A DNA stretch of 62,959 nucleotides, counting the filler, from Hausera hauseri (taxonomy: Eukaryota), in NCBI GenBank assembly GCA_046269625.1. It is 9 parts of 9 records of this genome, joined end to end, with 100 filler letters (N's around TTAATTAATTAA, not from the genome) between each part and the next. Parts side by side here need not be neighbours in the genome. Positions count along the whole stretch, not along the records: positions 8,738 to 25,148 come from JBJURY010299944.1; 8 more parts are not named here. One strand, 5' to 3'. The notes under the pieces were generated by a model, which was given only the letters and a program-made list of their open reading frames with translations, searched no databases and was not told where the DNA came from. The translations under genes were made by a program, and so were the position numbers. Positions 2,076 to 35,990 of the stretch are shown one piece after another. Every line of letters starts with the position of its first letter. Positions within the stretch are counted from its first letter, which is position 1.

Positions 2076-3839
2076 ATGGGCAGAGGGAAAAACTTTGACA
2101 AAGATAAGACAGTTAAAAAATTCAAAGTCGGTCACTTCAAGGTTTCCGAGGAAGGCATTTTAACTTACAAAAAGGTAATTGTTATCATAGATACGTATTT
2201 TGTTTTGACCAACTGTATTGTACAGAAAACTTTATCAGACATTAAAGCCGCCATCCAGTTGGGAATTATGATAAGTGTTGGGTCGGTAAATAATCAGCCA
2301 GAAAGAGATTTGCTATCAAAAGATTTTGGTGTCGAGGAAGTAGCGTGGGTGCCTCAAGATGGAACTTCTTTAACACTGGCACACAGTCTCGGGAATTTTC
2401 AATTCCGAACTTACTCGCCGATTGGCTTTCGGTATTTCAGGGATATTTACAAATTGAATAGATGTGAATTTATGGTAAGGTATTTTTCGTTTACCCCATT
2501 TAATATGCTCTTCGTACATGACATTTGTTAACACCTTTAGCAGACACTTGCAGTTTATTTTAATGTTTACAGTAACCATAATTCAGTGCACGTTTGGGTA
2601 AATTAGACAAACTTAATAAAATCAATATTTATCTATTGATATAATGTACAATATATTATAGTAAAAATTAGGCTATTGTAGAAATTTACCACCCTTTCTG
2701 AATACTATTGTAAGTGTTAATTTCATTGACATTTAGTTTATCATGCTTGTGTGTCAAAATATTATTTGATGATTGTGTGTATTTATGACATTTTTGAATT
2801 TGAACAGATTTAAATACGTTATAGTTTATTATCATCTGAAACTGTGATTAACGATATGATTTCATTAGAATTCCGTTTGTTCCAAAGAATTGGTCGACTT
2901 AAGCAGTCTGGGAGCTAGTGGATCGATATTTTATCGCACAGAAGACGACGAGTTTATCATTAAAACAGTTAGTAACAAAGAAGCACTGTTTCTGAAAAAA
3001 CTACTACCAGAGTATTACATGAATCTGATGCAGCATCCACGAACACTGTTGCCGAAATATTACGGCATGTACAGTTATGAGGTAGGCAGTTTTCCATTCA
3101 TTTAAATAATTAATCACCGAATTTCATGTAGACTTTGGATCGAAGTATTCGGTTTGTTATCATGAATAATATCCTCCCATCAATGGTGATCCATGAGAAA
3201 TACGATTTGAAAGGATCCAGTTATAAGAGATATGCGAGTAAAACGGAACTCAAAAAACAGTTGCCAACGTTGAAAGACCTTGATTTCAGGTTGGATTGAT
3301 GGATTTACATGATTGTTTACATTTGGTTTAGAGAAAACCACCCCGGTGGATTGATTTTGGATGCAGTAACGTATGATGCTTTGATTAAAACAATCCATCG
3401 AGACTGCAACGTTCTTGAGTCTTTTAAGATAACAGATTATTCTTTGCTGATCGCCATTCACAATATCGATGACAGCAAAAGTCGAGATACAACATCAAAC
3501 ACCACGGTTGTTGAAAATCAGGATGAATGCCCAGTTGAAAATTCCCAAAACGACACAGATAAACCCAGGCTAAGACCAAAAAAATTGGGCTATAAAGGAT
3601 CACAAAGACGGTTGTCTTCATATACAACACCAATGGAGGCCATCATGTCGGGATTTGAATGCACGGCTAGTGTTAATGGAGAAAACCCTAATTCTTTAAG
3701 TCTACCACCCGGTGGAATTCCAGCAGTTAATGCTAAAGGCGAGAAACTGAATCTGTATATTGGTATCATCGATATTCTCCAGCCGTACAAAACGAAGAAA
3801 AAGATTGAACATACATTGAAGTCAGTTGTCCTCGATAAG
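2076..3839 (+). CDS. PIP5K1: Type I phosphatidylinositol-4-phosphate 5-kinase, multi-exon, 3' end missing
   Basis: Motifs [64 protein letters not shown] introns at about 2175-2225, 2475-2868, 3082-3131, 3290-3331; donor at 3840. Confidence 0.93.
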
Positions 3840-3957
3840 GTAAGATAAATTTGACCTTTGGTTTTATATACCATGTTACTATGAATTTACGTATATTGCA
3901 AAATCCTTCGCAAAATATTCATTGAAGGTAATTAGCATAGTTAATAAAAAAATCCAA

Positions 3958-4057: not shown

Positions 4058-4636
4058 AACAATTTGTGAAAATCTTTTCCTGATCATTACATCCGTACTC
4101 TAACATTGTTTTTACATACAGTATGTAATTTTTTCACAAAATTTTTTTTTATTTCTTTGTCGTGTTTTTTTTTTAGCTTGATACATGATTAATCCTTAGA
4201 AACTGCCAATGTAAAGGTTTCCATCATGTTGCATACTTTTTAATTCACTTTTTAACCAATTTAAAGTAGGTGCTTGACTGCTGCAAGAGCCAGTTTACAG
4301 CTGCTCTAAATTTAACGCCTTAAAAAAACAGCTTTTCTTCTGCCTCATCAGAAAAGGCACAACACAGCAAGAGCATTACATCATTGGAAAATTTCTCCAA
4401 TACATTGTTTAATTCTCCCACAGGTTTTTCTACATTTCTATAGAGAAAAACATTGCTGGGAGAAAGATTATCTCCACAGATTACAGTGTTTGTCTCGTTT
4501 TCCTCACAAATCGATGTCTTAATATCTTCAGTGTGCATTTATGTGCTGCTGCAAGCGGCAGTCACTCTCTGTGAGTGCTCAGTCACAAACAGTACAGCAC
4601 AGTAGTTGTGTGTAGGTCAGAGTGTGTGTCTAAATA

Positions 4637-5682
4637 TGTTAGGAAGTGGAAAGCGACGCGTTGCTATGGCAACACGAGCGCTGATCGCTTTCCACTTCCT
4701 TGTTTTGATTTGACTCGTTAGCCAGCGCTGAGCAGATGCACCTGATTCTAATCAGCGCTGTGTATTTAATCCCCTGGTTTTCTCCAGTCCGGTGCTGGAG
4801 CATTACGTGGTGTACATTATGCACGTTGTGAGTAGTCCTTACCTTTTGAGTTGTTCTGTCGTTTGCGGTCCGTTCTAGAAGTAATCTAAGCCTGTTTGTT
4901 TTTGTCGCGGTTTTCTTAGTTCCGCCTCCGAGTCCGTCGCGCTTTACTTTCCGTGTTTTTTCGCCGTTCAGTTCCGTACCCAGTCCTGCGCTTCTCCCCT
5001 CTCGTCATCCTGTGCCTTCTCCTGTCGTATCCATTCCTCTACCCCCAACCCGGACATAAACTGTGTATCCTGTCTGCCATACCTGTGTCAAGCCTGCGTC
5101 CACCTGGTTCCTGTCCTGCTGTGATCCTACCCTCCTGGTTCCTGTCCTGCTGTGGTCCTACACTCCTGGATCCTGTCCTGCCGTTGTCCTGCTCATCTGG
5201 TTCCTGTCCTGCCGCTGTCCCGCACTCCTGTTCCTGTCCTGCCGTTGTCCTGCACTCCTGGTTCTGTCCTGCCGTTGTCCTGCACTCCTGGTTCCTGTCC
5301 TGCCGTGGTCCTACTCTTCTGGTTCCTGTCCTGCCGCAGTCCTGCACTTCTGGTTCCTGTCCTGCCGTTGTCCTGCACACCAGTTCCCGTCCTACCACCC
5401 GGTCCAAGTTCCTGTTGCCTGTCTGTCGTCCTGCCTCCTGGTCCAAGTACTTACCTTTGTGTCTGTCGTCCTACCACCCGGTCCAAGTTCCTGTTTGCCT
5501 GTCTGTCGTCCTGTCACCCGGTCCAAGTACCTACCCTCGTGTCTGTCGTTCTGCCACCCGGTCCCAGTATTAACCTGTTTAGTCTCATTTAGTTATTTAA
5601 TAAACTCTTTATTTTTCCCCAAGACTGTGTGTGTGTGCGTCGCTAGCTGGGTTCCCACCACTAGAACCTCCAACTCCTAACA
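4637..5682 (+). repeat. 5' LTR
   Basis: 8-bp terminal inverted repeat, TATA-like TATTTAA ~4763, AATAAA ~5599, internal ~31-bp tandem repeats ~5104-5380, homologous to 6761-7802. Confidence 0.9.
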
Positions 5683-5683
5683 G

Positions 5684-5694
5684 AATGCTCCAGC
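5684..5694 (+). promoter_or_regulatory. Self-priming primer binding site (Tf1-type)
   Basis: AATGCTCCAGC immediately after the LTR is the exact reverse complement of GCTGGAGCATT at 4794-4804, about 25-30 nt downstream of the TATA box. Confidence 0.8.
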
Positions 5695-5979
5695 CAGACA
5701 TGGAACCCAGCAGCACACACACTAAGGGCTCCTGGCCTGCCCAGATTTTTTCAGGCCAGCAGCCCACCCAGCAGACCCCGCTCAGGCCACAACTGGCCTT
5801 GCTCATCGAGAAGAACCAGCAGCTGTGTGCCCAGGTAGCAGAATTGGGCAAGCTGCTGGGCACGGCTTCCCCCCGTGGTCCAGGTCTCTCGGGTAGCTTA
5901 GGTGACGGTAAGCCCGTTGCTCTCCACCCCGGGAGCTGGTTAGCGTGTCGGTTGGTTGCGGGTCCGTCTGCGCTCCCCG

Positions 5980-6535
5980 TGTCCATCGGCTCCGGTCCCG
6001 TCCGGGGGTCCGACTCTGTCTCCGTCGGCTCCGGTTCCGTCCGGGGGTCCTACTCTGTGTCTGTCGGCTCCGGTTCCGTCCGGGGGTCCGACTCCTTTTC
6101 CGTCAGCTCCTGTACCATCCGGGGGTCCGACCCTGTTTCCGTCGGCTCCGGTACTGTCCGAGGGTCTGACTCCGTGTCCGTCGGCTCCAGTTCCGTCCGG
6201 AGGTCCGAGTCCGTGTCCGTTGGCTCCGGCCCCATCCGGAGGTCTGACTCCGTGTCCCTCGGCTCCGGTTCCACCTGGAAGTCCGACTCAGTTTCCGTCA
6301 GCTCCGGTTCCGTCCGGAGGTCCTACTCCGTGTCCGTCGGCGCCGGCCCCATCCGGAGGTCTGACTCCGTGCCTGTTGGCTCTGGTCCTGCTCGGAGGTC
6401 CGATCCAGTTTCGGTTGGCTCCGGTTCCACCCGGAGACCTGATCCAGTGTCCGTCGGCTCTGGTTCCACCCGGAGGCCCGATCCAGTTTCCGTCGGCTCC
6501 GACTCCTCGTCTGTCAGCTCCGGTTCTGTGCGGAG
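5980..6535 (+). repeat. Degenerate 39-bp tandem repeat within a gag-remnant ORF (ATG ~5700 to 6749)
   Basis: Unit approximately TCCGTCGGCTCCGGTTCCGTCCGGGGGTCCGACTCTGTC (SVSVGSGSVRGSD), about 14 copies. Confidence 0.85.
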
Positions 6536-6760
6536 GACCAAGCCCTTTTTCAGTCTGCGCCGTTTCCGTCCTGAGGTCCAGCCCAGTTTCGTTCGGCCCC
6601 GGCCCCATTTCTGTCAGTCACAGTTCCGGAGCAAGCCGAAGGTCCGGTTCAAGGGCGTGACCGGTCCATTTGGGTCCACAGGGCCCTCCGGCCAGACCCC
6701 CTCCACCCACCCGGGGAAGGTGATTCGGGTGCCAAGAGGCCCCCGTTAGGGGGGGGGTAC

Positions 6761-7802
6761 TGTTAGGAAGTGGAAAGCGAACTGCGCTCGTGTCGCCATG
6801 GCAACACGTCGCTTTCCACTTCCTTATTTTGATTCACCCTATTGGCCAGCGCTGATCGGGCTCGGCAGCTGTGTTGCATCAGGCTGATCAGCGCTGTATA
6901 TTTAAACCCCCGGTTTTCTCCAGTCCGGGGCTGGAGCATTACGTTATGTACATTGTGAGTAGTCCATTACCTTGTTTTGAGTTTATTCTGTCGTTCGCGG
7001 TCCAGTCTGGAAATAATTTAAGCCTGTTTGTTTTGTCGCGGTTTTGGTTCCGCCTCCGAGTCCGTCGCGCTATTATTTCCGTGTTTTTTCGCCGTTTCGG
7101 TTCCTTTACATAGTCCTGCGTTTCTCCCCTCTCGTCATCCTGTGTTCCACCTGTCGTGTCCACTCCTCTACCTCCAATCTGGACATTACCTGTGTATCCT
7201 GTCTGCCACACCCCAAAGTCAAGCCTGTGTCCATCTGTGCATCCTGTCTGTCACACCCCAAAGTCAAGCCTGTGTCCATCTGTGTATCCTGTCTGCCACA
7301 CCCCAAGTCAAGCCTGCGTCCACCTGGTTCCTGTCCTGCTGTGGTCCTGCCCTCCTGGTTCCTGTCCTGCCGTTGTCCTGCACTCCTGGTTCCTGTCCTG
7401 CTGTGGTCCTGCCCTCCTGGTTCCTGTCCTGCTGTGGTTCTACTCATCTGGTTCCTGTCCTGCCGCTGTTCCCGCACTCCTGTTCCTGTCCTGCCGCAGT
7501 CCCGCACTCCTGTTCCTGTCCTGCCGCAGTCCTGCACTCCTGGTTCCTGTCCTGCCGTTGTCCTGCACACCAGTTCCCGTCCTACCACCCGGTCCAAGTT
7601 CCTGCTCGCCTGTCTGTCGTCCTGCCTCCTGGTCCAAGTACTTACCTTTGTGTCTGTCGTCCTGTCACCCGGTCCAAGTTCCTGTTTGCCTGTCTGTCGT
7701 CCTGTCACCCGGCCCAAGTACTTACCCTCGTGTCTGTCGTTCTGCCACCCGGTCCCAGTATTTACCCTGCCGTTTAGTTTATTTAATAAACTCTTTATTT
7801 TT
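6761..7802 (+). repeat. 3' LTR, truncated after the polyA signal
   Basis: Starts TGTTAGGAAGTGGAAAGCGA after the PPT; colinear with 4637-5615; lacks the TCCTAACA end. Confidence 0.88.
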
Positions 7803-8737
7803 ACAAAAGCCTTTTCAGTTTGCATTGTAGTCTCATTTGAATGGGCTTGCATAGTCATGGAAAGTGTATACCCCAAATTGGGGAAATCTTTATAAACCAT
7901 ATTGCGGTAAAGAATGAAATTGATAGATTCTAAGATAATTAAGTTTATGAAATCTTAGCAGGAGAACATAATAAAGAAAAACAACATTTACATTCCGACC
8001 TCGAAATCTTTATCTCGCACAACGAACGCGAAAGACACAAAGGGAAAGAAACATATTGTTTGCATGTGATAGTCACATGACAAATTAGCAAACAACATTA
8101 AAAAAGAATATTATTAGAATAATAGTCAAGCATGAGTACCAGGAAAGTTAAATACGCAGATCAGCAATAGAAAGTTGTACTTATCCTTTTATTATAATCA
8201 CAATTTGTCTCAATAACTAGAGCCCTTGATAAAATATCAAATTCCAGACAAACCAGTAACCGAGCGATGGGCAGTTGGACTGACATTGCTTGCTATAAAA
8301 AGGCAATGGAAGCAAGTCAGAATGAAACTTAACGATCAGCCCAGGAGATAGAAACGAACAACAACGATCATGTGTGAGAAAAGAGAACAAAAGGCATTGA
8401 TACTGTACACTTATCACACCTTGAGTGTCTAGACAAGAGAGATGATAAAAGGAAGACTCGAGGACTGCTGAGGAGGGAGTGAAATGATGACAAAATAAAG
8501 AAAAAGAGAGGAAGATGGTTAAGGCATGGAGAATGGGACTGGAGGTGATGAAAGATGCAGAGTAGAATACGAATTGGGAGCGGGAGGTCTAGTATCAAAG
8601 AAAGGAAGATTTACATTCACTCCAAATGGAATGAACANNNNNNNNNNNNNNNNNNNNNNNNNNNNNNNNNNNNNNNNNNNNTTAATTAATTAANNNNNNN
8701 NNNNNNNNNNNNNNNNNNNNNNNNNNNNNNNNNNNNN

Positions 8738-11700
8738 ATATCTATGACTTTAGAAATTTTAAAATCGACGTAGAAAAATTTAATGGACAACCGGATAAGT
8801 TGATACCATTTTTGAAAGCTTACAAATCACAAAGTACTGCACTAGAAGTTAGTGAAAAGGATCAAATCAGACGTTTACCATTATATTTGACAGACATAGC
8901 CATAGATGCTTATAACGATTTGACTGAAGCCGAGCGAAAAAATTGGAATACCATAAGCATAGCAATGATAGATAGGTTCTTGCCAACCATGTCCCCTCAA
9001 CAACAATTAATTATTTTCCAAAATAGGTTTCAGAAGAATGAATCAGTTACTCAGTTTGCATACTCGTTACGACAGTTAATTTCCAATTATGTAGAAGCTA
9101 TTAAATTGACTAAAATGAGAAAAAATGGAAATAACGAAGTCGAAGAGATCAAAGTTGATACTGATATTTTGTTATCTACACAATTTATTCGTGGTCTCGT
9201 ACCAGATTTGAGGTATAAGGTTCTGGCCGGAAGCCCAAATACATTTGCTGATGCTTTAAAAATGGCACAAAATTTTGAGGCATTTAAACCGCCTAAGCAA
9301 AATAAAGATAATAATTATCAAGCTTCGAGCTCAAATTTTCAGCAAAGCATGCCACGAGAAGATACTAGACAGAATCTATCTAGTAATCAGCAACGAAATG
9401 ATAATTTAGACGCTAACCAAAGTAATAGAAGACCATTTAATAAAGGCAACAATTATCAAAATGATGGTCGTGAAGATATAAATAAAACAGGAAGAGTTAT
9501 AAAATGTTACAGATGTCAGCGTACAGGACATACTGCAAACAACTGTAGAACTCCTAACGACAGATTACCGATAAAAAGCGAGCCTACAACAAAATCAGCA
9601 GCTTTTAATGGTCCTGTAGAAAATTATTACCTTGATTATTGGCCTATGGAAAAACAAGATGCTAAAGAACTTGCTAAATTTCAAAGCTCTAATCCAAACC
9701 GTACGTATCATTCTTGTGGTACGGAAGAAGATGAGGAATTGTTACAAGCTAAGAGAATAATCATTGCAGCACATAAGGATGCAGTACGAAAACACTTTGC
9801 CGGATATCAACTAACGGAACTAGAGCAAATAGCATTTGACTCACTGCCTATACCCGTAGCAGCAGTAGATAAAGATGGAAAGAAAACTATTAAAATGTTG
9901 TCATATGGTTACACCGATGGTTTACCAGCAAAGTTGAAAAAAGTTCCAGAAAAAATTTCCGAAGATACTTTATCAAAACTAAAGAAGCCGAGAAAAGGCT
10001 CAAAATCTCCTCCAAGAAAATTTGCAGATAAGTTTATAAAAGAAGATAAAGAAATTTCCGAAGAAGCTAAAGAAAAAGTTATGAATCAAATGATTAAAGA
10101 TTTAGATCAAATGGCAAGAGGTGAAATACCTTTTGGTTTAGAGAAACTTGATTCTATTAATGCATATTTGCAACCCACCAGCTCATCAAAAGGTAATTAT
10201 AATAAACTTATGAAAGAAATGTACGATTTTCGTAAAACCGAAGTTCAGGAATCGCAAAGAAAACAGATTGACGAGGTTATTGAAGAAGTGCTAAACAAAG
10301 ATAAAACACCTGAACAAATTGAATTAGAAATGTTGCTTAAGGAAGCGCAAGAACTTATAAATAAAGAATTTTCTACATCACAATACGTAGAAGACGTGAT
10401 TATTAAATTAGTTCAGTACAAATTAAAGACAAAAGATTTACCAATTAAGCAAAAACAATTATTGAATGATGATATTAAAGCATTAGAAAGTAAATCCAGC
10501 TACATAAAAAGCAAATTAAATGAATTTCAAGTAGCAAATGACGAAATAGCAGACCTGTTAGACCAAGCACTATCAGTGTCTGAATTGCAAAAATGGAGCG
10601 CCCTCCAAATTTTAGCTCAACGAAGTCAAAAAGAACCTCTTAGTTTGGAAAAATTGGAACAATTAAATGACATTCAAAGCAAATTGCTAGATGTTACTAC
10701 ATCTTTTATAGAATCTATTTCAGAATTAAAGTTTGAAATCCGGAAGTTACTAAATGACAATGAAGATATGGATGACGGCCAGCGAAAGAAACTAACGAAA
10801 ATTCTTAAAGAAATTAGAAAATTAGGTATCGAACCAGATGAGGAAAAAGAACAAAAATTGGAAGAATTCATAGTAACAGTAAAAAGAATCAGAAATAATA
10901 TGTTATATAATGTTGATCTAGATAAAGTAGATTTAGAGTCAGAATCTACCACGCCAAAAACAATGCCCATGGAAGAGGCACAAACCAAAAAAGTGGAGAT
11001 TGTAACAATCTCATCAGATTCTGATGAAGATTTGTACAAACCACAGAGAGATGAATTAGTAAACGTTGCCATTCAGAAAATAGATTTGCAGCAAGAAAAT
11101 ACTGACAACGACTTGGAAAAACAAATAGATGCCTTCAAGAATCATCCTAGTTTTCTAGAAACATTGTTACTGACTTATCTTACTCAAAAACCAGATACTG
11201 AAAACATAAAAAAAGTTGCTCATAAGCTGGTTTCGTTAACCGCTGACGAGTATGCGTATAACGCAACTCCCAGAGTATTGTTAAAGTTGTTAGGAACAAA
11301 TATTAGACGAGTTATAAATCCAGAATTAGATTATGTAAATATCGTAACAAAATTTAACAGCTTAATAATGCCACAAGCCAAATTTTTAGTAAATGATACT
11401 ATAAGACAAATAGACAACCATATCAGAACCAGTATTGACAAACCATTAAATGAGTTGAATTATAATTTTAAAGGACGTTCCTTAAATTTAGACGACTGTA
11501 TTACTGACTTAGGAATGTTACCTCAAAAAACATACATAATAGATGTAGAGGAAGGAGACCTTAAACCCCTACCAGTAGTGCCAGAGAACATCAACTTAAC
11601 TGAGGTTTGTAATGATGATACGGAAATGCTCGAAAACGTAGCAAAATGTACATTGCTAGAATTAAATAAAACAGCAAAGACTAAGCGAACAAAAACAATT

Positions 11701-14700
11701 ACGTTAGCACAACAGTTTGCGAAACAACTTCAAGATTACGAAGTTCCTCAGCTATACAAAGAATACAAAGAAGTAAAAAGCTTAGTAAAAGAAATATTTG
11801 ATATCGATAGAGGTGTGACTAAACCTAACGCGAATCAAAAATGGAGAACCAGAGTAATCGAATTGCTAAAATATATTAAAAAATTGAAGAAAATGCCTGC
11901 ATACAAGAACATTACCTCGGAAGATTTAGCTCAATTACTAGTGGAAAAAACCACTCGAAAAAACCTAGAAAAAGGTATATGTCTCCTCGTGACGGACATC
12001 CATGATCAAAGCGATATAAAGACAATCACTGGAAAGGTTATACAATTAAGTCAAAATATTATACCAAGCAAATGTTCTTGGGATGAGTTATTCTTACGAA
12101 ATAGCCAAACCTTGGCGAAATTCCAACAAGAGGCTGAATTAACTTATAGAACTATTCTAGAAAAAGAAGAAATTTTGTTGCCAAAACTAACCAGTGAATT
12201 GACTAAATCATTGGAAAATGAAATTAAGGAAACTCGGGTTAAAGGAAGCAATGCAGCATATTCATCTATATTCCTCTTGATATTACTATTTATGTCATTA
12301 ATTAGGAAAGGTAATAATATCTTGGCATACGATTGCGAACATATTTATGAAGGAGATTATTACTCCTTGATGGACCTGGATTCATGTCCTGAAGCACATC
12401 CCAGGAATATAACAACCGTTCAAAAGACTTTATATATTTATCATGATCGAGCAGCGGTACAAATAAAAGGATATGAATGCATGCTCACAAGGTCAAGAAC
12501 AGTAACATATTGCGGAATGCATAGTCATGAAACCATTATCATACCAACTACTATACCAGAACCAGAAGCGGTATCACCTGAAGCTTGTAAAATAGCTGTT
12601 GAAACAGGATTTTTAAGATTTGATAGAATGGAATTTAAAGCAGGTATAGGAGAAGTTCATCAAACAGAAAGATATGTTGTCGGAACCAAAGATTTAGGTG
12701 GAAACTGTAATGGAGGAACTTATGATTTAGGAAAAGGACCACAATCGGGTTTAATAATACATGATCAATACAGAATTCAAATAAAACAGCAAACTTACAA
12801 TTTTGACACTAATACAAAAGCTATGATGGATGCTTCATTTTGCAAGTTAGGGAAAGGGTACTGCCACACTATAAATTCAGTCTTGATATGGGACGTACCG
12901 AAAAAATTTGACTGCCATTTAGTATTGATAAAAAAGGGTATATTTAACGTAACTTCAGGCAAGAGATATGCTAAATATTTCGAGACCAACTTCGAACAAA
13001 CTAATGTAAACCAGATACCAGAAATTAAAACACCTACAATTGTTATGTCCGCAAACTTAGTAGGAGGAGTGAAGTTTATCCAACAAGAACCTACATTTAA
13101 ATGTGGAAAGGCTATCCATTCCACGAACTATCCCTCCTATTATATCGCAGATTCAGAAGTGCCAGACGCCGATAATTTACCAGTCGATATTAAAAGCTTT
13201 CTGAACTTAGGAGATCACTTTAATATTAGAGATGACACCTTGTTTTATATAACGCAAAAAACTATGGATGAAATGTATACCGAGATAATTGAAAATTTCT
13301 GTAAAGTGAATCTCGAGACATTAAGGAATAGATTAGCAATTCTAGCAACTAATCCAGAAATGGCTGCAATAACCATGCCGTTAGGCGAAGGAATCCAAGG
13401 AAAAATTATAGGCGAGGCCCTATTCACCTATAAATGTAAACGTATAGATGTGCCATTAGTAATATTGAAGAATATATGTTATATAGAAATTCCGGTAACT
13501 TATAAGAAAGCGATTCGTTATGTCCAACCAATAACGCGAATATTGTTAGATAAAAATACTGAACCCACTAGAATAGTGAATTGTACGACTTTATACCAGC
13601 CTTATATAAAATACGACAACGAAGGCACATGGGTAGTATTACCCGAAAGAAAGAAACCTCATAAAACACCTAAACGTCTCACAATGACAGCTTTACGACA
13701 TGCTGTAGAAAACAATCTGTTCACAGATCTATCAAAAACCACTCTCTATACCAGAGATGAGATAAATGATATGATCCAAGCTTTAAGATATCCAGTACAA
13801 AGAGAACAAGCTTTAAATAAAGCCTTACACCGCATACTGGATGATGGAGTTCAAGATGCTAGATGGGAAAAATTATTAAGTCCAGATCATTATAAGGAAG
13901 TAACTATGAATTTCTTAAAAACTTTATGGGGAGGTTTTATAAAGTTTGGCACAGTTTCAGCGGGAATATTCACTATTTATTTGAGTATACAGACTGCCAA
14001 AGCGATCCTTTCGTCATTATTGAACGCCTATGAAATATATACCTTAACCGGGTTTTCATTAAAAATATTATCTGCCGTCTTCACACCATTTGGTAAGATA
14101 TTAAAAGCTCATGAAGAAAAAAGATGGAAAAATCTAATAGAAAAACATGTTAAAATGGACAACAGAAAAAAGAAACCGCCGCCTAAACCTCCACCGAGGT
14201 TAGATGGTGAGAACAATACTTACACTGAAGTACCGGTGACAAGTACAAATAATCAGGATTTGCCTCTAATTACAGAAAGAATTGAAAGAGATATTAAAAA
14301 CCCCTACGGTGAACACGATAAATACGGAAAATTGTTTGTTATACCGAGAGTTTCAAATCAAACAGACCAAATCAAGAATGAACAATTAAGGCGAACTAGC
14401 CAATACCCAGATTTAACGTTATTCTCACAAAAATGGCAACCGATTACCACGTCAATGACTAGACCAAAAACACCACCCGTATCTATTTCCTCTAGACCAA
14501 CCTCTCCACTACTGACTAACTCGATTTTATTAGAAAATAACAATACGACTGACCTAACCCTCACTGGTAAATTTGTGGTTGAAAACGGTGTGGTCAGAAC
14601 TGCAGGCGTATATTCACTATTACCTTTGGTCGAAAATCCTACAGAAAAACAACTTCAGGCCATAAATCGAGTGCGAGATCCAAGACCGCAAACTACAGTA

Positions 14701-16446
14701 CGAATTAGAAATTTAGAAATAAATGCCTTAATTGACACTGGAGCTACAATATCTCTAATTCATCAAATGCTTATACCAATCAATTACCAGCACGAAGTAC
14801 GCCTACCAAACCCGTCAGATACAGGCAATGTGTCGCTTTTTGGACAAACAGTATTTCCAGTAGGATATTGGACAACGGAAATAATTCTTTACGATCAAAA
14901 GTTGGTTGTGACATTGCAAGTTTTGCAACAGTTGTACCCTAATATGATCATAGGTATGGACACATTGAAAAAATTAAAAGATTCTGTAATAGATTTAACA
15001 ACGGGTCAAGTACATATAAATCACAAATTCCAGTTGCAAGATAACCCAAAATACGTTAATGCTGTATGGATTGAAAATGAAACCATATTACCACCGTATA
15101 GTGAAATATTAATCAAAGGAAAATTATTGGCACCAGAAAACACAATAGTAAAGTTCGAACCAAGAAGATTTTGTAAAGGATACTTTTTTGCTTCAAATTG
15201 TACAATAGTTCAAAATGGTACTATTCCAATAGTAGTAGCAAATTGTAATCCAAAGACAATAATTTTATACCCAAACACTCGAATAGGTGAATTCTATTAT
15301 ACATTTAGCCAAAATATTACGGAGTATTTGGCTGCAACAACCCACGGAGAATTATATGACCATGAAATTTTTCAGCAATTGGTAACAAATATCAAACAAA
15401 GAATAAATGACGAGCAACTAAAAGATATGATAAAATTAGTGAAAGAGTTTGCAGAAATCTTTGCAGTTAATGATGTAGATATTGGATGTACAGACTTAGT
15501 AGAATTTAGATTAAATTTGGTTACAGATGAGAAAACGGGCAAAGAGATAGACTTAAACAAGCAACCAATGCCTAAATGGTACCCTCCACCTCATTCACTT
15601 CAAGCCGAAGTAGTAGAACAGGTTCAAGATTGGTTAAATAAGGGAATTATAGAACCTAGCCAAGCATCATGGGCATCACCAATTGTGATGGTTCCAAAGA
15701 AAAATACCACAAAAAGGAGACTATGTGTTAACTTCGTACAATTAAATAAATATTTAGAAAATCATATCTATCCCATACCACGAATCAAAGAAATAATAAA
15801 TGACTTGAAAGGATGCACCTTATTCACTGCCTTAGATTTACAATGGGGATTTTTGAACATCCCAATAGTAGAATCAGATAAATGGAAAACAGCTTTTAAA
15901 ACTCATACTGGCATATATCAATTTAATAGGATGCCATTTGGTCTAAAAACGGCACCAACTTTTTTCCAGGAATTTATGAGAATAGTTCTGAAAGGAATAC
16001 GGAGTCTATCGTATATAGATGATATTCTAATTGCCTCCAGAACTTGGCACGAACACATGCAACAACTTCGAGAAGTTTTTGAGAGAATACGTGATGCAAA
16101 ATTAAAACTAAACCCATTGAAATGTGACTGGTGTCAAACCTCTGTAACTTATTTGGGTTTCAAGATCTCTGCCAACGGCATTGAAACTAGTCCGCACATA
16201 GTTGCCAAAGTGTTAGAATTTCCTGCTCCTACGAATAAAAAAGAACTGCAATGTTGGTTAGGACTTATTGGATACTACAGTATTTTCATACAAAATTTCT
16301 CCCAAATAAATAGTGTATTATATGAATTGTTACGAAACGATAAAAAATACATTTGGGAAGAAAAACACCAAAATGCTTTTGACATCATGAAAAAAAAATG
16401 GTTTCAGCACCGATTTTACAATATCCAGACTTTGAATTACCATTAA
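8738..16446 (+). CDS. Polyprotein part 1: Gag, helical insert, glycoprotein, aspartic protease, reverse transcriptase
   Basis: 2548-aa ORF from 8800, open to the contig edge. CYRCQRTGHTANNC at 9505-9546; ALIDTGA at ~14725; WASPIVMVPKK, RMPFGLKTAP, YIDD at 16012-16023. Confidence 0.95.
12250..14110 (+). CDS. env: Envelope glycoprotein domain, chuvirus (Jingchuvirales) G-like, putative class III fusogen
   Basis: Hydrophobic signal SIFLLILLFMSLI, then ILAYDC..YSLMDLDSC, CMLTRSRTVTYCGMHSH, GEALFTYKC, CYIEIPV, QPITRIL; N-glycan sequons NIT, NVT, NCT; C-terminal hydrophobic LWGGFIKFGTVSAGIFTIYLSI at ~13925-14020. Pattern matches chuvirus G as I recall it. Confidence 0.8.
15060..15300 (+). other. 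dUTPase-like beta-rich spacer between protease and RT, probably inactive
   Basis: TILPPYSEILI...IPIVVANCNPKTIILYPNTRIG resembles the degenerate dUTPase-fold segment found in many Gypsy pol proteins. Confidence 0.45.
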
Positions 16447-16523
16447 TCTTGAAGACAGACGCTAGTTTAAACGGATTAAGCTATATCTTAGCACAGTAAT
16501 ATCCTAACGAAAAAATCGAACAT
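16390..16523 (+). pseudogene. Disrupted RT-connection/RNase H junction: 1-nt frameshift in an A9 run plus in-frame TAA
   Basis: Shifting at A9 (16390-16398) gives VSAPILQYPDFELPLILKTDASLNGLSYILAQ*YPNEKIEHVVAYGGR, in frame with ORF 16524; TAA at 16497-16499. Confidence 0.9.
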
Positions 16524-19500
16524 GTGGTGGCATATGGAGGTAGAGCCTTATCTAAAGAAGAAAAGAATTATTCAACTACTGAATTGGAACTTTTAGCTGT
16601 CCTAGAAGGATTACGAAATTACGAATTTTATATCTATGGTTACCCTGTGATAGTGTATACAGACCATCAAGCATTAGAAAAACTTGACTGTAAAAACAAA
16701 AGAATATACAATCGTATACAACGATGGAAATTGGAGTTGTTAAATTACAACCCAAAGTTTAAATATGTACCAGGAAAAATGCACACCGATGCAGATGCTA
16801 TATCGCGAACCATATACCCTTCTGAGATCGCATCAGCAGCGCTCACATTGATGGATGAACACGAATTTACAACAATGATGACAGATTTCGCCAACCTTAA
16901 TACCAGCAAACTAGCAACCGTTCAGGATGATGATCCTTTACTGTATATAGTGAAAAAATTTGTACAAACATCAGAAATACCGAACATTGATGAACGTTTA
17001 ACCGATTGGCTAACTGAACATAAGTCCAAACTGATTATCGATCGAAATATACTAAAGTATGTATATAATGACAAAGCTTTAATAGTGATACCCAATTCAT
17101 TGATTAAATCCGTATTACTCCAGGAACATGATTCTCACCTCGCTGGCCATCCTTCGCTAAGAAAGACTATAGAACGAATTAAACTCAAGTACTTTTGGCC
17201 GAATCAATCAGAGGATATAGTTAATTGGGTCAAATCTTGTAAGATTTGCGCAACCCGAAGGGATAGGGGAAGATGTATAAGACCAATGCTTGGAACACTT
17301 CCAGAGCCCAAAGCACCTATGGAAATATGTGCTATGGATATTTCAGGACCTTATCCGATATCCGAATCAGGCTATAAATATATACTGAGTTTTATTGACT
17401 ATTACACAAGTTACATTATATTAATCCCATTAAAAACTATGACTACTGAAGCAATAGCAATGGAACTATTTAACAAACTGATATGCGTATTGGGATCACC
17501 TAGATTAATATTAACTGATAGAGCGCCATATTTTACGAGTCAACTATTTAACGAAGTTTCAAAAGTATTACAAACTAGACATGTGTTAACCACAGCTTAC
17601 CATCCACAGTGTAATGGTAAAGTAGAACGATCTAATAGAACTGTGCAAGGAATTTTATCTGTACAAGTCTCAACAGACCAGAAAAATTGGCCAGATAAAT
17701 TGCCCACTGTAGCCTTCGCCATGAATACCACACCAACGAGAAGTACAAGTAAAACACCATACGAATTGATGTTTGGAAGACTTCCTTTGTTACCTTTAGA
17801 CGTTGAGCTACTACCAACAGCTTTACCATTTACGGGTAACCAGCAAGAAGAAAATTACGTAGTTTTGCTAAAACAATTAAACGAATATGGAGAACAAGCG
17901 AAAGCAGTTAGAGAAGAATACAAAAAATCCTATACTAAACATTACAATAAAAAGGCTCAGACAAATCCCTATAAAAAAGGAGATTTCATCATGATTCACT
18001 ATCCAGTAACAACCAAAGGAAGATCCCTAAAACTGACGCGCACTGGCAAAGGTCCATATAAAGTTGTGGAAGTTAGACCACAAACTCTATTCATTGAAAA
18101 ATCTCCAGGGAAAATAGAGAATGTTTCCGTACAGAATGTAACTAGAGCCCCAAAATCGTACACAGGAAAATTCGGTCTCACATCAACAAATTTGCTTTCC
18201 ACTAATTTGTTAACAATGATTTGCATTCTTATTATTCTGTTATCTTGTACTCATACAAGTTATGGTCAATTTAATATTCCTTATAAATCTATGGTACAGC
18301 TGATTAAGCAGAATCAAAACCATACAGCTAGCGATGAGATATTCAACAAGGAAATACAAGTACTTGGACCAGATTTTGAAAGAGGCTGTATAAAGTTCAA
18401 AAAGAGACATACCAGTAATATCGTGCGAATAGTGATTTTCTACAAAGAAAAATTAGCATTCACTGATTTGGATAATGAGAATAACTCAACATGTCTTTTA
18501 GTAATTAGAGATCAACCATTTTCCTTGCTAGCATTAATTTTTAAAGGTAATAAAGAGAATAAGTGGGACTTACATCTAACAGTCAAATCCAGTATAAAAT
18601 GTTTAATACCTTTTAAAATCAACGAATGTGTTTATGACGTCACCTTCATGATCAAGCAAAATAGGTGCAACATAACTTATAAAGAATATAGAAAGATGGC
18701 AAAACATAATGATTTGGAGATCACCGAAAATTTATTTGTAATGATTTACCCTAAATCTGATCGAATAGCATTCGCTTGGAATTATCAATCAAATATTAAG
18801 AATACACAAGTTAGCGTCACTTGTATAAATCAGCATCATCAACAACGAATTATCCTTGAAAGGAAGCAAAAATATGCTCATTGTGCAAAGTTAAGTTCAG
18901 ATACTGATTACTTAATAGTAATAAAAAATTGCACTCATTATTCAGAATTGTATGCTAGAACCTTACCCAGAGTAAATAGAATAATCAAGTTCAATTATAA
19001 TAAAAATGACTCTAAGACTGATTCACAAACTGTGAAACCAAAAATAGATAATATTGAATCAAGCATGGTTGCGTGTGCCTTCCTAATCATTATATTAAGT
19101 GTAACTTTGTTCTTTGTGTTGGCTATAGGCACTTTAATTATTCCAAAAATAGTACGATACAGCCATAATGACACTATCACGTGTCACTGCCCACTAATTT
19201 CAAGATGGCGGTCGCAGGCTAGTCATCCGCATGAGCAATTATCGCACACACTACACGCGCCCCCACAAATAGTTACATTATTAGCATATTCATTGGTTAT
19301 GTGTTGTTCGCACACCAATAGAGGTGAGTATTTAAATGAAGTTCATTTATTTTCAGTCCTCTACAAATTCAATATGAAACGACAAAATCCGAAAATGACA
19401 AAAAACGATTCTCAAATTCAGTCTAATTTGCTGTATTCCAAGATGAATCCCCAGTATCATGCAGATCAATTGGACTCGCAAACGTTAATCCAGAATTTTG

Positions 19501-21365
19501 GGAGTAAAAGAGGGAGTCTCAACAAAACTATGTCAAAAACCTTCTATAATAATATCCGGAGACAGATGATAAAAATGGACCATTTCGTAGCTTTAAGTGT
19601 GGTTCGAATCCCGAATCAATTAAAGCACGAAATTACTGTAAACCGAAATCTCGGAATTTACTTGATCCAGGAGGCCCAGCAGTTAGAACTAAAGAGATAC
19701 ATGTCCAAAACCGACATGATAGATGGACTAGTAATCCATGTCGCCAGAGGCATGATCAGCTTAAAAACCCGGAGCGAACAGCAGTATCCTGATTCAAACG
19801 TCTGCACGATCTGTGAAGAAGAAACTCTATTTATCAACACTCCCATGAGCATTGATTTAATCCAAGCCAGACCAATGTATGTACCACTCGTTATAATGCT
19901 AGAATGGCTCCTCCCTGAAAAACACCTATATTTACCCAGACCAATGATCTTGGCTCATAATCCTCCTGAAATAGTGCGACAATCCAGGTTGAATTTTATC
20001 AACACCAACCAAAGTAACACAATCCGAATATTAACAGTATCAGTCGGATACATGCAGGATAATAGCCCCTTACCTATCCACGTCATTATCACCAACAAAA
20101 CGGGGACTATATTGTACGAAGCCATAGTTGCCAATAGAAAGAATGTACACAATGTTAATTCAATAAGACATGGCATATTACCGGAGTATATTGCTCATCA
20201 CGGGCAAGACATATTCGATGTCACAAGAGAAATTATTAATTGGCTATTCGGGACCGTGGTAGTTGGGTTGGAAACACATAAAATGTTAGAAGCCTTCGAC
20301 ATACCACTCAATTATTTTGCAGGAATTATAGATTTATTAAAACACGAGGAGATCACCGGACACACGTTTCAACAGTTGACGTTAATGAATATCAGCACTG
20401 TTCTGAAACTACCTGGATCACGAAATGGTCATGGATATGCACAAGACAACCACGGTAAATTACGACTTACTATGGATATTTTTCAGAAGGTAACAAACCC
20501 CTTCCAAGTAGCATGGATACCACCGGAACCTTTTAATAATGTTATTGACCCTGGAGAGCTGTTTTATAACAGGGAAAAATATTTAGCAGAATTCGCTTGG
20601 ATCCATCATGTGATAGAAGGACTTGTTCAGGACCCAGAAGCTATTGTGGATGAAATCATGGATGAGTTAAAAACACCATCCATGTCGGATATTTCAGATA
20701 TCGTTGCAGATGAAGAACGAAAATTACAACTGGAAGATCAGACTCTTGAAACCACTGACGAACAAACATACAATACGGATTGGGGTAAATGGAATCATAA
20801 TACCAGCAATATGAGCTCAATAGCAGTCCAGACAGAGGACACTGATTTCGACAAGTTCGTTAGAAGAATAAAACAAGGATTGAGAAAATCAGAAGTCTTT
20901 ACATTTCCATACGGAATCATTATTTACACGAGAAGCTTCAGCTTTCCCGTAGTAATTGATTCCATCGAGGCACCACTCTATATTGATCAGACAATCCCTC
21001 AAATTACATTACAATCATGGGACAGCAGCAACAACATACTCATTGGATTTATATATGAGAGATCAGTGGACATAAAGATCCTTTTCCTATTCGAAGATTA
21101 TGAAAGACTGTATAAATTACCCATAAGACTGGATGCCGAATTACACGTTAAGCTCCCGGTTCAGGTAAAAAATAATACCGTAGTAACGAAGCTGAAAAAT
21201 GAGCATAAAGGAGGGAAATTGACTTATATCTTGTTAATCAAATGCCAGAAACCTACTATGATCCCGATTGAGCGTGTACCACAAGGAAAGAAACCAGATT
21301 CTGAATTAACATTGACATACAGAATCGAAAATGAAATCAGACAAGAAGTTGACCTGGACTATTGA
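16524..21365 (+). CDS. Polyprotein part 2: RNase H, integrase, signal/ectodomain/TM module, exonuclease-like domain, unknown C-terminus
   Basis: NYSTTELELLAV, VYTDHQAL; HHCC (HDSHLAGH..CKIC); DDE core (AMDISGP, TDRA, VERSN); GPYKVV ~18050; hydrophobic stretches ~18207-18265 and ~19065-19150. Confidence 0.93.
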   Translation: MVAYGGRALSKEEKNYSTTELELLAVLEGLRNYEFYIYGYPVIVYTDHQALEKLDCKNKRIYNRIQRWKLELLNYNPKFKYVPGKMHTDADAISRTIYPSEIASAALTLMDEHEFTTMMTDFANLNTSKLATVQDDDPLLYIVKKFVQTSEIPNIDERLTDWLTEHKSKLIIDRNILKYVYNDKALIVIPNSLIKSVLLQEHDSHLAGHPSLRKTIERIKLKYFWPNQSEDIVNWVKSCKICATRRDRGRCIRPMLGTLPEPKAPMEICAMDISGPYPISESGYKYILSFIDYYTSYIILIPLKTMTTEAIAMELFNKLICVLGSPRLILTDRAPYFTSQLFNEVSKVLQTRHVLTTAYHPQCNGKVERSNRTVQGILSVQVSTDQKNWPDKLPTVAFAMNTTPTRSTSKTPYELMFGRLPLLPLDVELLPTALPFTGNQQEENYVVLLKQLNEYGEQAKAVREEYKKSYTKHYNKKAQTNPYKKGDFIMIHYPVTTKGRSLKLTRTGKGPYKVVEVRPQTLFIEKSPGKIENVSVQNVTRAPKSYTGKFGLTSTNLLSTNLLTMICILIILLSCTHTSYGQFNIPYKSMVQLIKQNQNHTASDEIFNKEIQVLGPDFERGCIKFKKRHTSNIVRIVIFYKEKLAFTDLDNENNSTCLLVIRDQPFSLLALIFKGNKENKWDLHLTVKSSIKCLIPFKINECVYDVTFMIKQNRCNITYKEYRKMAKHNDLEITENLFVMIYPKSDRIAFAWNYQSNIKNTQVSVTCINQHHQQRIILERKQKYAHCAKLSSDTDYLIVIKNCTHYSELYARTLPRVNRIIKFNYNKNDSKTDSQTVKPKIDNIESSMVACAFLIIILSVTLFFVLAIGTLIIPKIVRYSHNDTITCHCPLISRWRSQASHPHEQLSHTLHAPPQIVTLLAYSLVMCCSHTNRGEYLNEVHLFSVLYKFNMKRQNPKMTKNDSQIQSNLLYSKMNPQYHADQLDSQTLIQNFGSKRGSLNKTMSKTFYNNIRRQMIKMDHFVALSVVRIPNQLKHEITVNRNLGIYLIQEAQQLELKRYMSKTDMIDGLVIHVARGMISLKTRSEQQYPDSNVCTICEEETLFINTPMSIDLIQARPMYVPLVIMLEWLLPEKHLYLPRPMILAHNPPEIVRQSRLNFINTNQSNTIRILTVSVGYMQDNSPLPIHVIITNKTGTILYEAIVANRKNVHNVNSIRHGILPEYIAHHGQDIFDVTREIINWLFGTVVVGLETHKMLEAFDIPLNYFAGIIDLLKHEEITGHTFQQLTLMNISTVLKLPGSRNGHGYAQDNHGKLRLTMDIFQKVTNPFQVAWIPPEPFNNVIDPGELFYNREKYLAEFAWIHHVIEGLVQDPEAIVDEIMDELKTPSMSDISDIVADEERKLQLEDQTLETTDEQTYNTDWGKWNHNTSNMSSIAVQTEDTDFDKFVRRIKQGLRKSEVFTFPYGIIIYTRSFSFPVVIDSIEAPLYIDQTIPQITLQSWDSSNNILIGFIYERSVDIKILFLFEDYERLYKLPIRLDAELHVKLPVQVKNNTVVTKLKNEHKGGKLTYILLIKCQKPTMIPIERVPQGKKPDSELTLTYRIENEIRQEVDLDY
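20022..20485 (+). CDS. DEDDh 3'-5' exonuclease-like domain (ISG20/REXO4 type) with degenerate catalytic residues
   Basis: HVIITNKTGTILYEAIV..HGILPEYI..DIFDVTREIINWLFGTVVVGL..IIDL..LTLMNIS parallels REXO4-type RVSIVN..G.VLYD..V..SGIRPE.L..F..VQ.EV..LL.GRILVGH; DxE and later Asp residues are not present. Confidence 0.65.
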
Positions 21366-21657: not shown

Positions 21658-21670
21658 AAGGGTCGGGGAT
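21658..21670 (+). promoter_or_regulatory. Polypurine tract
   Basis: AAGGGTCGGGGAT directly precedes the TGTTGTGG LTR start. Confidence 0.75.
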
Positions 21671-22234
21671 TGTTGTGGATTAGTCAGCTAGTAGTCTAGA
21701 CTAGTTGTACTAGACTGACCATCAAAATCAAAATCCCCGCGCGCGGCTAGTTTAAAAGTGACAGTTAATTTGATAATTGCGCCGGCGCTACAAAATTACT
21801 ATAAATAGTGAGACGAATTTCATTCTCACCGAATAACATTTTTGTTTAATGCTGTTGCTGAATCAATTTTGGGAAATTTTTGACATTTGGAATTTCTAAA
21901 TAGAGATTCATTTTTTAAAACCATTCATAAGTGAGTTTAGTATACGTAATTGTGTTCGTCTTATTTTTATCTTTATTTGGTAAATTGGTGGTTTTTATCA
22001 GTTTATTTGCTCGATTTGGTAAAATACATATTATATATTTTAATTCACTTCTTCTTATAAGTAAAAATATTGAAGCACGTTTTGCAGAGAAAACGTAGCT
22101 AACTAAACAAGTTTTTTATTTCCTCAATATAACAAATACCTACATACAATTAAATAACATACTTTTATCCCTCAGATTTGTGCATTTAAGAATTTTCAAT
22201 TAAAATTTTGATTGAACATTCTTAAATAACAATA
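21671..22234 (+). repeat. LTR (~560 bp) shared between tandem copies 1 and 2
   Basis: Bounded by PPT+TGTTG and by TAACA(ATA)+PBS; TATAAATA at 21800-21807; only one copy visible so the 3' end is uncertain by a few nt. Confidence 0.8.
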
Positions 22235-22237
22235 AAT

Positions 22238-22249
22238 TGGCGCCCGAAC
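22238..22249 (+). promoter_or_regulatory. Primer binding site, tRNA-Lys(UUU)
   Basis: TGGCGCCCGAAC equals the first 12 nt of the canonical tRNA-Lys3 PBS. Confidence 0.88.
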
Positions 22250-22821
22250 TCAAGTACGTTTGATTTACATTTCACCATTGATTTCATACGACGATTTTTA
22301 TCAAGGCGTAATAGGCCTGAATTTACCGTTATTGTTGGAGAAACAAAAATCCGTTTTCGTAATTACCAAACCTTTCTGGATTTCCTTGAAACTCAGAAAC
22401 GTTCTAATAATATCGTGCTTTTTAAGAAAGCTATTGTTATTGAAAAAAGTACTTGAATTCTGGTTGTTCCCCTACATATAACTTGAAACTTTCAACACAC
22501 GTTGTTAACCTTCAAGGGTCGGGGAAAATTGTAGTGTAAAATTGTGCGTTAGAAAACAAAAGTAATTAAATTCTTTTTTGACATACTTAGACTTCTGACT
22601 CCGACAGTCAAGTAGTCGCACAATATAAAATCAGCCAAGACTTAAGTAATAATTAATAAATACCATTGGGAAAAATATACAAATTAAAGTAGCTAAAGCC
22701 AACACTAATCATAAGTCGAAAAACTAGAAGTCAAAGCTTACTTAGATTTAAGGATAAAATAGACTTACCTACTGAAAAAATACCTATAGTTTTAGCAGAA
22801 AAACTTCAAATTAATAAGGAA

Positions 22822-25148
22822 ATGGCTGCTAAAGAAAACAACCTAAATGTTTATGACTTTAGAAATTTTAAGATTGATGTAGAGAAATTTAATGGACAAC
22901 CTGATAAGTTGTTAACGTTTTTGAAAGCATATAAATCTCAAAGCACCGCATTAGAAGTTAGTGAAAAAGACCAAATCAGACGTTTGCCTTTATACTTAAC
23001 AGACATAGCTATAGACGCTTATAATGAGTTGACTGAAGCCGAGCGAAAAAATTGGAACACAATAAGCATAGCAATGATAGACAGGTTTCTGCCGACCATG
23101 ACTCCTCAACAACAGTTAATAATTTTCCAAAATAGATTTCAGAAAAATGAATCAGTTACTCAGTTTGCATACTCTTTACGACAATTGATTTCCAACTATG
23201 TAGAAGCCATAAAATTGGCAAAAATGAGACAAAATGGAAATAATGAAGTCGAAGAGATCAAAGTTGATACTGATATTTTGCTATCTACACAATTTATTAG
23301 AGGTTTAATACCAGATTTGAGGTATAAGGTTCTGGCCGGAAGTCCAAATACATTTGCTGATGCTTTAAAAATGGCACAAAATTTTGAAGCGTTTAAACCG
23401 CCTAAACAAAATCGAGATAATAATTACCAGTCGCCAAATTCTAATTCTCAGCAAAGCATGCCACAAGAAGATCCTAGACGGAATTCTCCTGGCAATCAAC
23501 AACGTAATGATAATTTAGAAAGTATTCAAACTAACAAGAAACCGTTTTATAAAGGCAACAACTATCAAAATGATGGACGAGAAGATGTAAATAAAACAGG
23601 CAGAATTATAAAATGTTATAGATGTCAGCGTACCGGTCATACTGCAAATAATTGTAGAACTCCTAATGACAAATTGCCAATAAAAAGCGAGCCTACAACA
23701 AAATCAGCAGCTTTTAATGGCCCTGTCGAAAATTATTACTTTGATTGCTGGCCAATGGAAAAACTAGATGCAAAAGAACTTGCTAAACTTCAAAATCCTG
23801 ATGCAAACCGTACGTATTATACTTGCGGTACGGACGACGATGAAGAATTGTTACAAGCCAAGAGAATAATTATTGCAGCGCATAAAGATGCAGTTCGAAA
23901 ACATTTTGCTGGATATAAATTAACAGAAATGGAACAAATAGCATTTGACTCATTACCAATACCAATCGCAGCTGTAGATAAAGATGGAAAGAAAACTATT
24001 AAAATGTTGTCTTATGGTTATACAGACGGACTGCCAGCTAAGTTGAAAAAGATTCCAGAAAAAATTTCTGAAGATACATTGTCAAAATTGAAGAAACCTA
24101 GAAAAAGTTCAAAATCCCCTTCAAGGAAACTTGCAGATAAATTCATACAGGATGATAAGGAAATTTCTGAAGAAACTAAAGGAAAAGTTATGAATGAAAT
24201 GATAAAAGATTTAGACCAATTAGCAAGAGGTCAAATACCTTTTGGTTTAGAGAAACTTGAATCTATAAATGCGTACTTGCAGCCTACTAGTTCGTCAAAA
24301 GGCAATTATAATAAACTTATGAAAGAAATGTATGATTTTCGTAAAACTGAAATACAAGAAGACCAAAGAAAACAAATTGACCAGGTTATTGAAGAAGTAT
24401 TAAACAAAGACAAAACGCCTGAAGAAATTGAATTAGAAACCTTACTTAAAGAAGCACAAGAGGTTATAAACAAAGAATTTCCTACATCACAATATGTAGA
24501 AGACGTGATTATTAAATTGGTTCAATATAAATTAAAGACAAAAAACTTGCCAACTAAGCAAAAACAAGCATTGAATGATGATATTAAAACATTAGAAAAT
24601 AAATCCAGCTTTATAAAAAATAAGCTAAATGAATTTCAAGTTGCAAATGACGAAATTACCGACATTTTGGATCAAGCTTTATCAGTGTCTGATTTACAAA
24701 AATGGTCTGCTCTTCAAATTTTAGCTCAACGAAGCCAAAAAGAACCTCTCAGTCTAGAAAAAATAGAAGAACTAAATGACATTCAAAGCAAATTATTAGA
24801 AGTTACCACATCATTTATAGGCTCTATATCAGAATTAAAATTCGAAATTCGTAAACTATTAAATGAAAATGAAGATATAGATACTAGACAAAAAGCTGAA
24901 TTAATAAAAACTCTCAAAGAAATTAGAAAATTAGGTATAAATCCCGATCCAGAAAAAGAACAACAATTAGAGAAACTTATAGTAGCTGTAAATGAGATCA
25001 GAAATAATATGTTATACAGTGTAGACTTAGATAAAGCAGATTTGGAATCAGAAATTACAACACCAAGTACGACAGCCATGAAAGAGATAGAAGAAAAGAA
25101 AACGGTTACAGTAGTGATCTCATCAGATTCTGATGAAGATTCACTTAA
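22822..25148 (+). CDS. gag: Gag and helical insert of tandem copy 2, truncated by contig end
   Basis: Colinear with 8738-11035; ATG start MAAKENN; identical CCHC knuckle; many synonymous differences. Confidence 0.95.
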
Positions 25149-35973: not shown

Positions 35974-35990
35974 TGACGTCACTTCCTGGA
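35974..35990. promoter_or_regulatory. CRE (TGACGTCA) overlapping an ETS-like CACTTCC site; likely promoter of the element
   Basis: TGACGTCACTTCCTGG lies upstream of a minus-strand splice donor CGGTAAGT near 35850. Confidence 0.45.

Follow-up and report, generated by a model that had tools for sequence, protein, structure and literature searches.

Results

Organization of the locus

The window analysed here, a stretch of 62,959 nucleotides, consists of nine contigs joined by eight 100-nt linkers of N around TTAATTAATTAA (one lies at 8638-8737), and because this joining is artificial, contigs on either side of a linker are possibly neither adjacent nor from one organism. One contig (8738-25148) carries, on the plus strand throughout, parts of two tandem copies of a large LTR retroelement with a unit length of about 14 kb. 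Copy 1 opens within gag (8738..9600; Pfam zf-CCHC E 7e-05, Retrotrans_gag E 0.003, Ty3_capsid E 0.009), whose CCHC zinc knuckle lies at about 9499-9549 by the Pfam zf-CCHC match, and whose 5' end is missing together with the 5' LTR, both lost in the linker at 8638-8737. In the same frame follows a spacer of about 880 amino acids (9601..12246), which has no assigned family and no convincing match in Pfam or NCBIfam, and then a glycoprotein, hereafter G. The latter begins with a predicted internal signal peptide (12250..12327), a hydrophobic stretch (best 11-mer KD 3.15) that ends right before YDC, continues with a predicted class III fusogen ectodomain of the chuvirus-G / HSV gB-type Env kind with 14 cysteines (12328..13920; PF24664, AF2, Foldseek and VIA) and closes with a membrane-proximal region bearing LWGGFIKFG, a transmembrane anchor predicted from hydropathy and a cytoplasmic tail (13924..14170). 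An aspartic protease with a DTGA motif (14677..14979; Pfam RVP E 1.3e-08) and a reverse transcriptase of Ty3/Gypsy type with a YIDD motif (15691..16167; Pfam RVT_1 E 5.2e-30) remain in frame with G, such that one open frame of 2,586 codons (8686-16446), starting inside the N gap, holds gag, spacer, G, protease and RT. The intact ORF of about 620 residues described by the earlier note is indeed free of stops from 12250 to 14109; it is, however, not an ORF of its own, being the middle of this much longer frame.

Behind a break between RT and RNase H (16390..16499, from three-frame translation), a second frame (16500-21365) encodes RNase H and integrase with an H2C2 zinc finger, core and GPY motif (16500..18101; Pfam RT_RNaseH E 3.7e-20, Integrase_H2C2 E 2.7e-18, rve E 1.5e-10, GPY from the translation), followed by an extension of about 1,060 more residues (18180..21365). 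Further 3' lie a putative polypurine tract, AAGGGTCGGGGA, immediately 5' of TGTTG (21658..21669), a putative LTR of about 560 nt recognized by the polypurine tract on its 5' side, its TG...CA ends and the primer-binding site on its 3' side (21671..22231), and that primer-binding site, TGGCGCCCGAAC, with a TGG start (22238..22249), which we take to be of tRNA-Lys type. A second polypurine-like word AAGGGTCGGGGA stands in the leader (22514-22525) of copy 2, whose gag and spacer (22693..25148) are cut by the next N linker. Rfam gave no match within the window.

By its Pfam domains the element has the order gag(CCHC)-PR-RT-RH-IN of Ty3/Gypsy (Metaviridae-type) elements. The pol domains are of Gypsy type, with neither DUF5641 nor any other match of Bel/Pao type, and the best solved relative of the RT is the Ty3 RT (E 2.5e-47), with caulimovirus, foamy virus and MLV RTs behind it. 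The earlier assignment to a Gypsy element, a superfamily other than the Bel/Pao of the reported case, is borne out by these domains and this RT match, and a Ty3/Gypsy LTR retroelement whose env lies in the same frame as gag before it and pol behind it is one part of the joint explanation that we regard as highly probable.

The second copy, the break and the extension

The two copies stand head to tail (21658-25148), are diverged and share a single putative LTR, the only one on the contig between polypurine tract and primer-binding site, since copy 1 has lost its 5' end and copy 2 its 3' end at the linkers. Copy 2 is 84.8% identical to copy 1 in DNA over 2,292 nt, and 90% in the amino acids of gag. 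The differences are mainly silent (dN/dS 0.075 in gag and 0.11 in the spacer, 9601-11031), and the spacer is under purifying selection between the copies. When contigs of one sequencing run were placed on the contig, 9,341 found a place, 8,341 of them with 90-99% identity; although such depth does not equal copy number, this cover is in line with a large multi-copy family. Among the datasets listed, one run contains the element and no RNA dataset does, which has no bearing on expression.

In copy 1 the frame shifts near 16390-16400, and a stop stands at 16497-16499 in the RNase H frame (three-frame translation), whereas RT and RNase H are continuous in all six related polyproteins that hold both. 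The break reflects either decay or an assembly error, and the four indel rows of the run mapping, none of which falls at the break, are weak evidence on this choice. Copy 1 falls short of the bar set in PMC13524379 for intact errantiviruses, namely intact RT and integrase in continuous ORFs; it is a defective or mis-assembled member and, being broken between RT and RNase H, is therefore likely not autonomous.

The extension behind the integrase has a signal-like stretch (18192-18248) and a transmembrane-like stretch (19071-19127), both seen in hydropathy, together with a beta-rich part and unassigned domains. It gave no convincing match in Pfam, NCBIfam or PDB, and a single-sequence fold prediction reached a pLDDT of 33.6; one part of it may be FN3-like and another exonuclease-like. 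Its GC3 of 0.36 is above that of the rest of the element, and between about 19.7 kb and 21.9 kb there is a steep drop in run cover, as if this part differed between copies.

G belongs to the chuvirus-G family

All six chuvirus-G motifs reported by the earlier note are present where it had placed them, in one frame: AYDC (12325-12336) with SLMDLDSC nine residues on (12364-12387), YCGMHSH (12508-12528), GEALFTYKC (13411-13437), CYIEIPV (13477-13497), PITRIL (13528-13545) and LWGGFIKFG (13924-13950). When loosened, each of these patterns is found in between 35 and 132 of the 144 family rows, and 13 cysteines are nearly invariant across 112 alignment rows. The profile search that the earlier note had proposed came out positive, as the 620 residues encoded by 12250-14109 match Pfam PF24664 Monjiviricetes_fusion with an E value of 3.6e-73 (247 bits, the cut-off being 27), and G scores 344 bits against a 126-member family profile built without the window and without its closest polyprotein relatives, whereas 200 shuffles and the reversed sequence score 4.4 at best. 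The homology of G to the chuvirus-G family is real. Other sequence searches gave little: a word-indexed protein search with G returned none of 3,574 candidates (341-1,085 aa only) at E <= 0.001, the same search with alignment A1 gave three matches only, and nothing in a PDB sequence search with G fell under E 0.3.

In the window, as in all 12 related polyproteins checked and in both chuvirus G proteins, [AG][YF]DC is preceded by hydrophobic sequence. The anchor of G is weaker than that of its relatives (best 19-mer KD 1.43 versus 1.8-2.5), yet it aligns with theirs. GC3 of G is 0.28 as compared to 0.26-0.29 in gag, spacer and pol, which leaves no compositional seam.

An AlphaFold (AF2) model computed from the 112-row alignment (pLDDT 88.7, pTM 0.71) has a long central helix (298-345) and the five-domain class III fold of the gB kind. 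Foldseek against viral models ranks chuvirus G best, with a TMq of 0.74 for Wenling crustacean virus 14, and proteins of qin-, xinmo-, nyami- and rhabdo-like viruses next; because the structure library holds viral proteins only, retroelement relatives cannot appear among these matches. Against the PDB, Foldseek gives 118 matches at E <= 0.001, and all rows among those listed are herpes gB (HSV gB E 1.9e-14), and VIA-align places 378 residues on gB with a Z of 10.1 and an rmsd of 7.2. Signal peptide, ectodomain, transmembrane domain and gB-like fold are thus all predicted for one protein, the anchor being weak (KD 1.43), and on the strength of this model we predict G to be a class III fusogen belonging to the family of chuvirus G. 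The earlier note had staked its reading on profile or structural similarity of G to chuvirus G or another class III fusogen, and since the profile (PF24664), motif, Foldseek and VIA matches are all positive, the reading survives.

Relatives of G

A full phmmer scan with G over 1.84 billion representatives gave 1,020 matches at E <= 0.001. In 10 of the best 15 of these, G is followed within one protein by a protease or RT. The remaining five are either fragments or long proteins that end with G, and in one of them gag-like sequence stands ahead of it. Names were looked up for 30 matches, and two of the 30 clusters are chuvirus glycoproteins. In the alignment, four polyprotein relatives are 28-32% identical to G and two more distant ones 22-24%, the two named chuvirus G proteins 21.5% and 19.3%, and the Bel/Pao-linked G (P0030) 20%; identity to gB is 9-13%. 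Among the relatives (P0003, P0004, P0151, P0005 and P0127), two to several protease-like domains can stand behind G. Ankyrin and C2H2 domains also occur in P0151 (4,844 aa), and ahead of G in P0005 there is a weak match to Bcl-2, both as described for the planarian element Burro, and P0127 has Ig domains joined to a G of the chuvirus-G family.

For the trees, 144 of 163 rows were kept and 19 rows under 430 aa left out. With FastTree the window falls inside an 18-row polyprotein group (support 98), and with IQ-TREE on 30 chosen rows inside a 12-row polyprotein group (100/99). Instead of nesting with chuvirus G, of which two named viruses were sampled, it stands apart: the AU test rejects grouping the window with the two chuvirus G proteins together or with that of Wufeng shrew chuvirus 2 alone (p 1.8e-05 each), as well as with the Bel/Pao G, P0030 (1.9e-83), on groups that were defined after the first tree was known and in trees that are unrooted and have most tips without labels. 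P0030, which carries DUF5641 ahead of G, falls on the chuvirus side, and stand-alone G proteins without names branch beside the gag-G-pol group. The window branch is long, 1.26-1.44 in the large G trees and 2.2-2.6 in the 7-row trees. The comparison of G and RT phylogenies suggested by the earlier note could be made for seven elements only; in these, the G tree reproduces both starred splits of the RT tree, without any supported conflict.

Scans for DNA context gave 18 pattern matches for relatives in metagenome contigs, none of them confirmed, and none in viral contigs with a chuvirus G; because both scans came back empty, the stand-alone G rows are not divisible into viral and retroelement ones. 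Likewise, six short motifs of the published Schmidtea rows had no exact match among the stored proteins (best 7/9), so that the tree tips are not linkable to the published Schmidtea elements.

Discussion

Relation to known elements

The novelty implied by the earlier note is not borne out, given that the literature already has Gypsy elements whose glycoprotein is Chuviridae-like and whose genes are ordered GAG-ENV-POL (PMC13524379, PMC6431247). In the first of these articles, Chary and Hayashi (eLife 2026) describe Gypsy elements with Chuviridae-like envelopes, among which those with GAG-ENV-POL order come from flatworms, bryozoans and nematodes. Their GAG-ENV-POL "ancient errantiviruses" with HSV/gB-type ENV, Platyhelminthes C1a (Smed_errantivirus_1-6), appear there likewise with Ty3/gypsy pol and gag-env-pol order, their gB-type Env is called Chuviridae-like, and the elements measure 14.5-18 kb. 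In a comparison by eye only of G with the Smed_errantivirus rows, the eight cysteines of domains I-II and the pattern TP..M...F.....KCG...TNY agree; YCGMHSH is absent from all seven supplementary files, and "chuv" occurs 0 times in the ENV sequence supplement. The present element differs from the C1a elements in the broken RT/RNase H of copy 1 and in the extension of about 1,060 residues behind the integrase. PMC13524379 states in its text that no global phylogeny was inferred for gB-type Env, and the literature searches listed no rooted tree joining gag-G-pol envelopes with chuvirus G.

An older precedent, described in a 2019 review (Arkhipova and Yushenova, PMC6431247), is the giant gypsy-like planarian element Burro / GYPSM1, whose single polyprotein has env in frame behind gag and ahead of pol, an env region that matches fusion glycoproteins of arthropod and fish mononegaviruses, and large accessory regions. 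The review also ties Burro env to gypsy Env and paramyxovirus-type proteins, so that Burro env may or may not be of class III. Burro, at 25-30 kb in that account, is far longer than the unit of about 14 kb seen here, and unlike in Burro, no MATH, BIR, BCL2, ankyrin or dUTPase domain was found by Pfam in the present element. Anakin (PMC7642597) is a Bel/Pao element with a Chuviridae-derived glycoprotein, that is, the same glycoprotein family on an LTR element of the other superfamily. With Jingchuvirales G and herpes gB, G shares a family profile, cysteine frame and predicted fold, and chuvirus G itself is reported to match gB by Foldseek (2026 preprint, 10.64898/2026.08.30.748148); in contrast to Jingchuvirales G, it lies within a retroelement polyprotein without an adjoining L or N gene. 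Troyka elements were considered and dropped, as they are without envelope and have another zinc finger and other ends (PMC12440569). Seen against these systems, the layout is a published one and the element is a divergent, broken addition to the published group.

Origin of G

We are quite confident that G is the in-frame envelope of an invertebrate Ty3/Gypsy element, that it shares an ancestor with chuvirus G and that it has likely been inherited within the element for long. That it was long carried by the retroelement group follows from its nearest relatives being gag-G-pol proteins, from the AU rejections, from the agreement of RT and G splits and from the lack of a GC3 seam. The contention of the earlier note that G is derived from chuviruses thus stands as regards the common G family and the gB-like fold, and is not supported if it is taken to mean a lineage-specific capture. 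Such a recent capture of a chuvirus G gene by a Gypsy element would fit the structural matches, which chuvirus G models lead with a TMq of 0.74 for Wenling crustacean virus 14, and the naming of the Pfam family after Monjiviricetes, and an event of this kind has been proposed for the Bel/Pao element Anakin (PMC7642597). However, the named chuvirus G proteins are only 19-22% identical to G, below its retroelement relatives, the AU test rejects grouping with the two chuviruses sampled, the in-frame layout and internal signal recur throughout the group, and there is no compositional seam at G. We therefore consider a recent capture very unlikely and, for the two chuviruses sampled, largely refuted. 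Still harder to credit, to the point of being nearly negligible, is that G is a non-retroviral endogenous viral element, a chuvirus G relic landed in a retrotransposon by chance, or that it entered by an assembly chimera. Gypsy fragments do often flank chuvirus G relics, and Dezordi 2023 reports such fragments beside chuvirus glycoproteins with no clear capture (PMC10084718); the window, moreover, is made of contigs joined by artificial linkers. Nevertheless, a single contig carries gag, G and pol in one frame of 2,586 codons, the same fusion occurs in 10 of the best 15 matches, and the run covers G like gag and pol.

That the founder of the gag-G-pol group took its G from a chu-like negative-strand virus in one ancient event, with vertical inheritance thereafter, differs from the long-inherited envelope that we favor solely in naming the donor, and to this naming we would give somewhat less than an even chance. 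The G family is broad in negative-strand viruses (chu-, xinmo-, qin- and nyami-like), structural matches place it in xinmo-, qin- and other such viruses, and unlabelled stand-alone G proteins branch beside the group. On the other hand, the tree is without a root, those neighbouring proteins are without names, and Chary and Hayashi argue for a pre-Cambrian association of gB-type Env with Gypsy elements (PMC13524379). As the tree is unrooted and few viruses in it are labelled, the deep transfer may have gone either way, in which we concur with the earlier note. A further, rather speculative proposal, which we consider improbable, is that the gag-G-pol envelopes are an old lineage, sister to or source of the G of chu-like viruses, and that the present element extends their group to a parasitic flatworm and adds a second membrane protein behind the integrase.

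A putative expression scheme

General knowledge of membrane polyproteins permits us to propose how the in-frame envelope may be made. Gag would be synthesized by the ribosome in the cytosol, whereupon the internal signal peptide would thread the G ectodomain into the ER, and cleavage by signal peptidase would expose the N-terminus of G at YDC. The anchor would then halt transfer and bring the polyprotein back to the cytosolic side; there the retroviral protease would separate the G tail from PR-RT-RH-IN and so free Pol. Trimers of the gB-like G on budding particles could fuse these into other cells, as a parallel to the Drosophila errantiviruses, which have another Env. With a single polyprotein message, Gag, Env and Pol would consequently arise in a fixed ratio without splicing.

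The host

The element probably belongs to an invertebrate, a flatworm, the latter being suggested by its likeness to the Schmidtea elements, and this host may be parasitic, perhaps of fish. The nine curated flatworm elements in PMC13524379 are all from free-living species, and the survey there has ENV adjoining POL in none of four Monogenea rows and in one among the 21 trematode rows listed of 28.

Other contigs of the window carry a TRAF gene without introns (RING, zinc fingers and MATH; 46623-48101, minus strand), which points only to an animal, and a divergent PIP5K gene with very short introns (2700-3848, plus strand), an exon of which is 38-47% identical to many animals, without narrower affinity. 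An exon at about 43650-43780 (minus strand) may be casein-kinase-1-like. A frame with several hydrophobic stretches and no family match (28602-29525, minus strand) may be the tail of another large element. Two contigs, 4058-8637 and 29626-37308, differ from the rest of the window, one having 51% GC, LTR-like direct repeats and tandem arrays of 31-45 nt, and the other being CpG-poor (o/e 0.38) with a 434-codon frame (32712-34016). Both may resemble fish repeats, which would fit a fish parasite sequenced with DNA of its host.

Implications

A useful by-product of the analysis is a tree of a kind that PMC13524379 did not attempt, which places the in-frame envelopes as a supported group of their own, apart from chuvirus and Anakin G. 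If the host is parasitic, the element would be a small extension beyond those of free-living flatworms. If the less probable proposal of an old envelope lineage were true, with viruses nested in retroelement diversity, class III fusogens would have passed from retroelements to RNA viruses, and retrotransposons would be a fusogen source for negative-strand RNA viruses, which would bear on how these viruses gained their envelopes.
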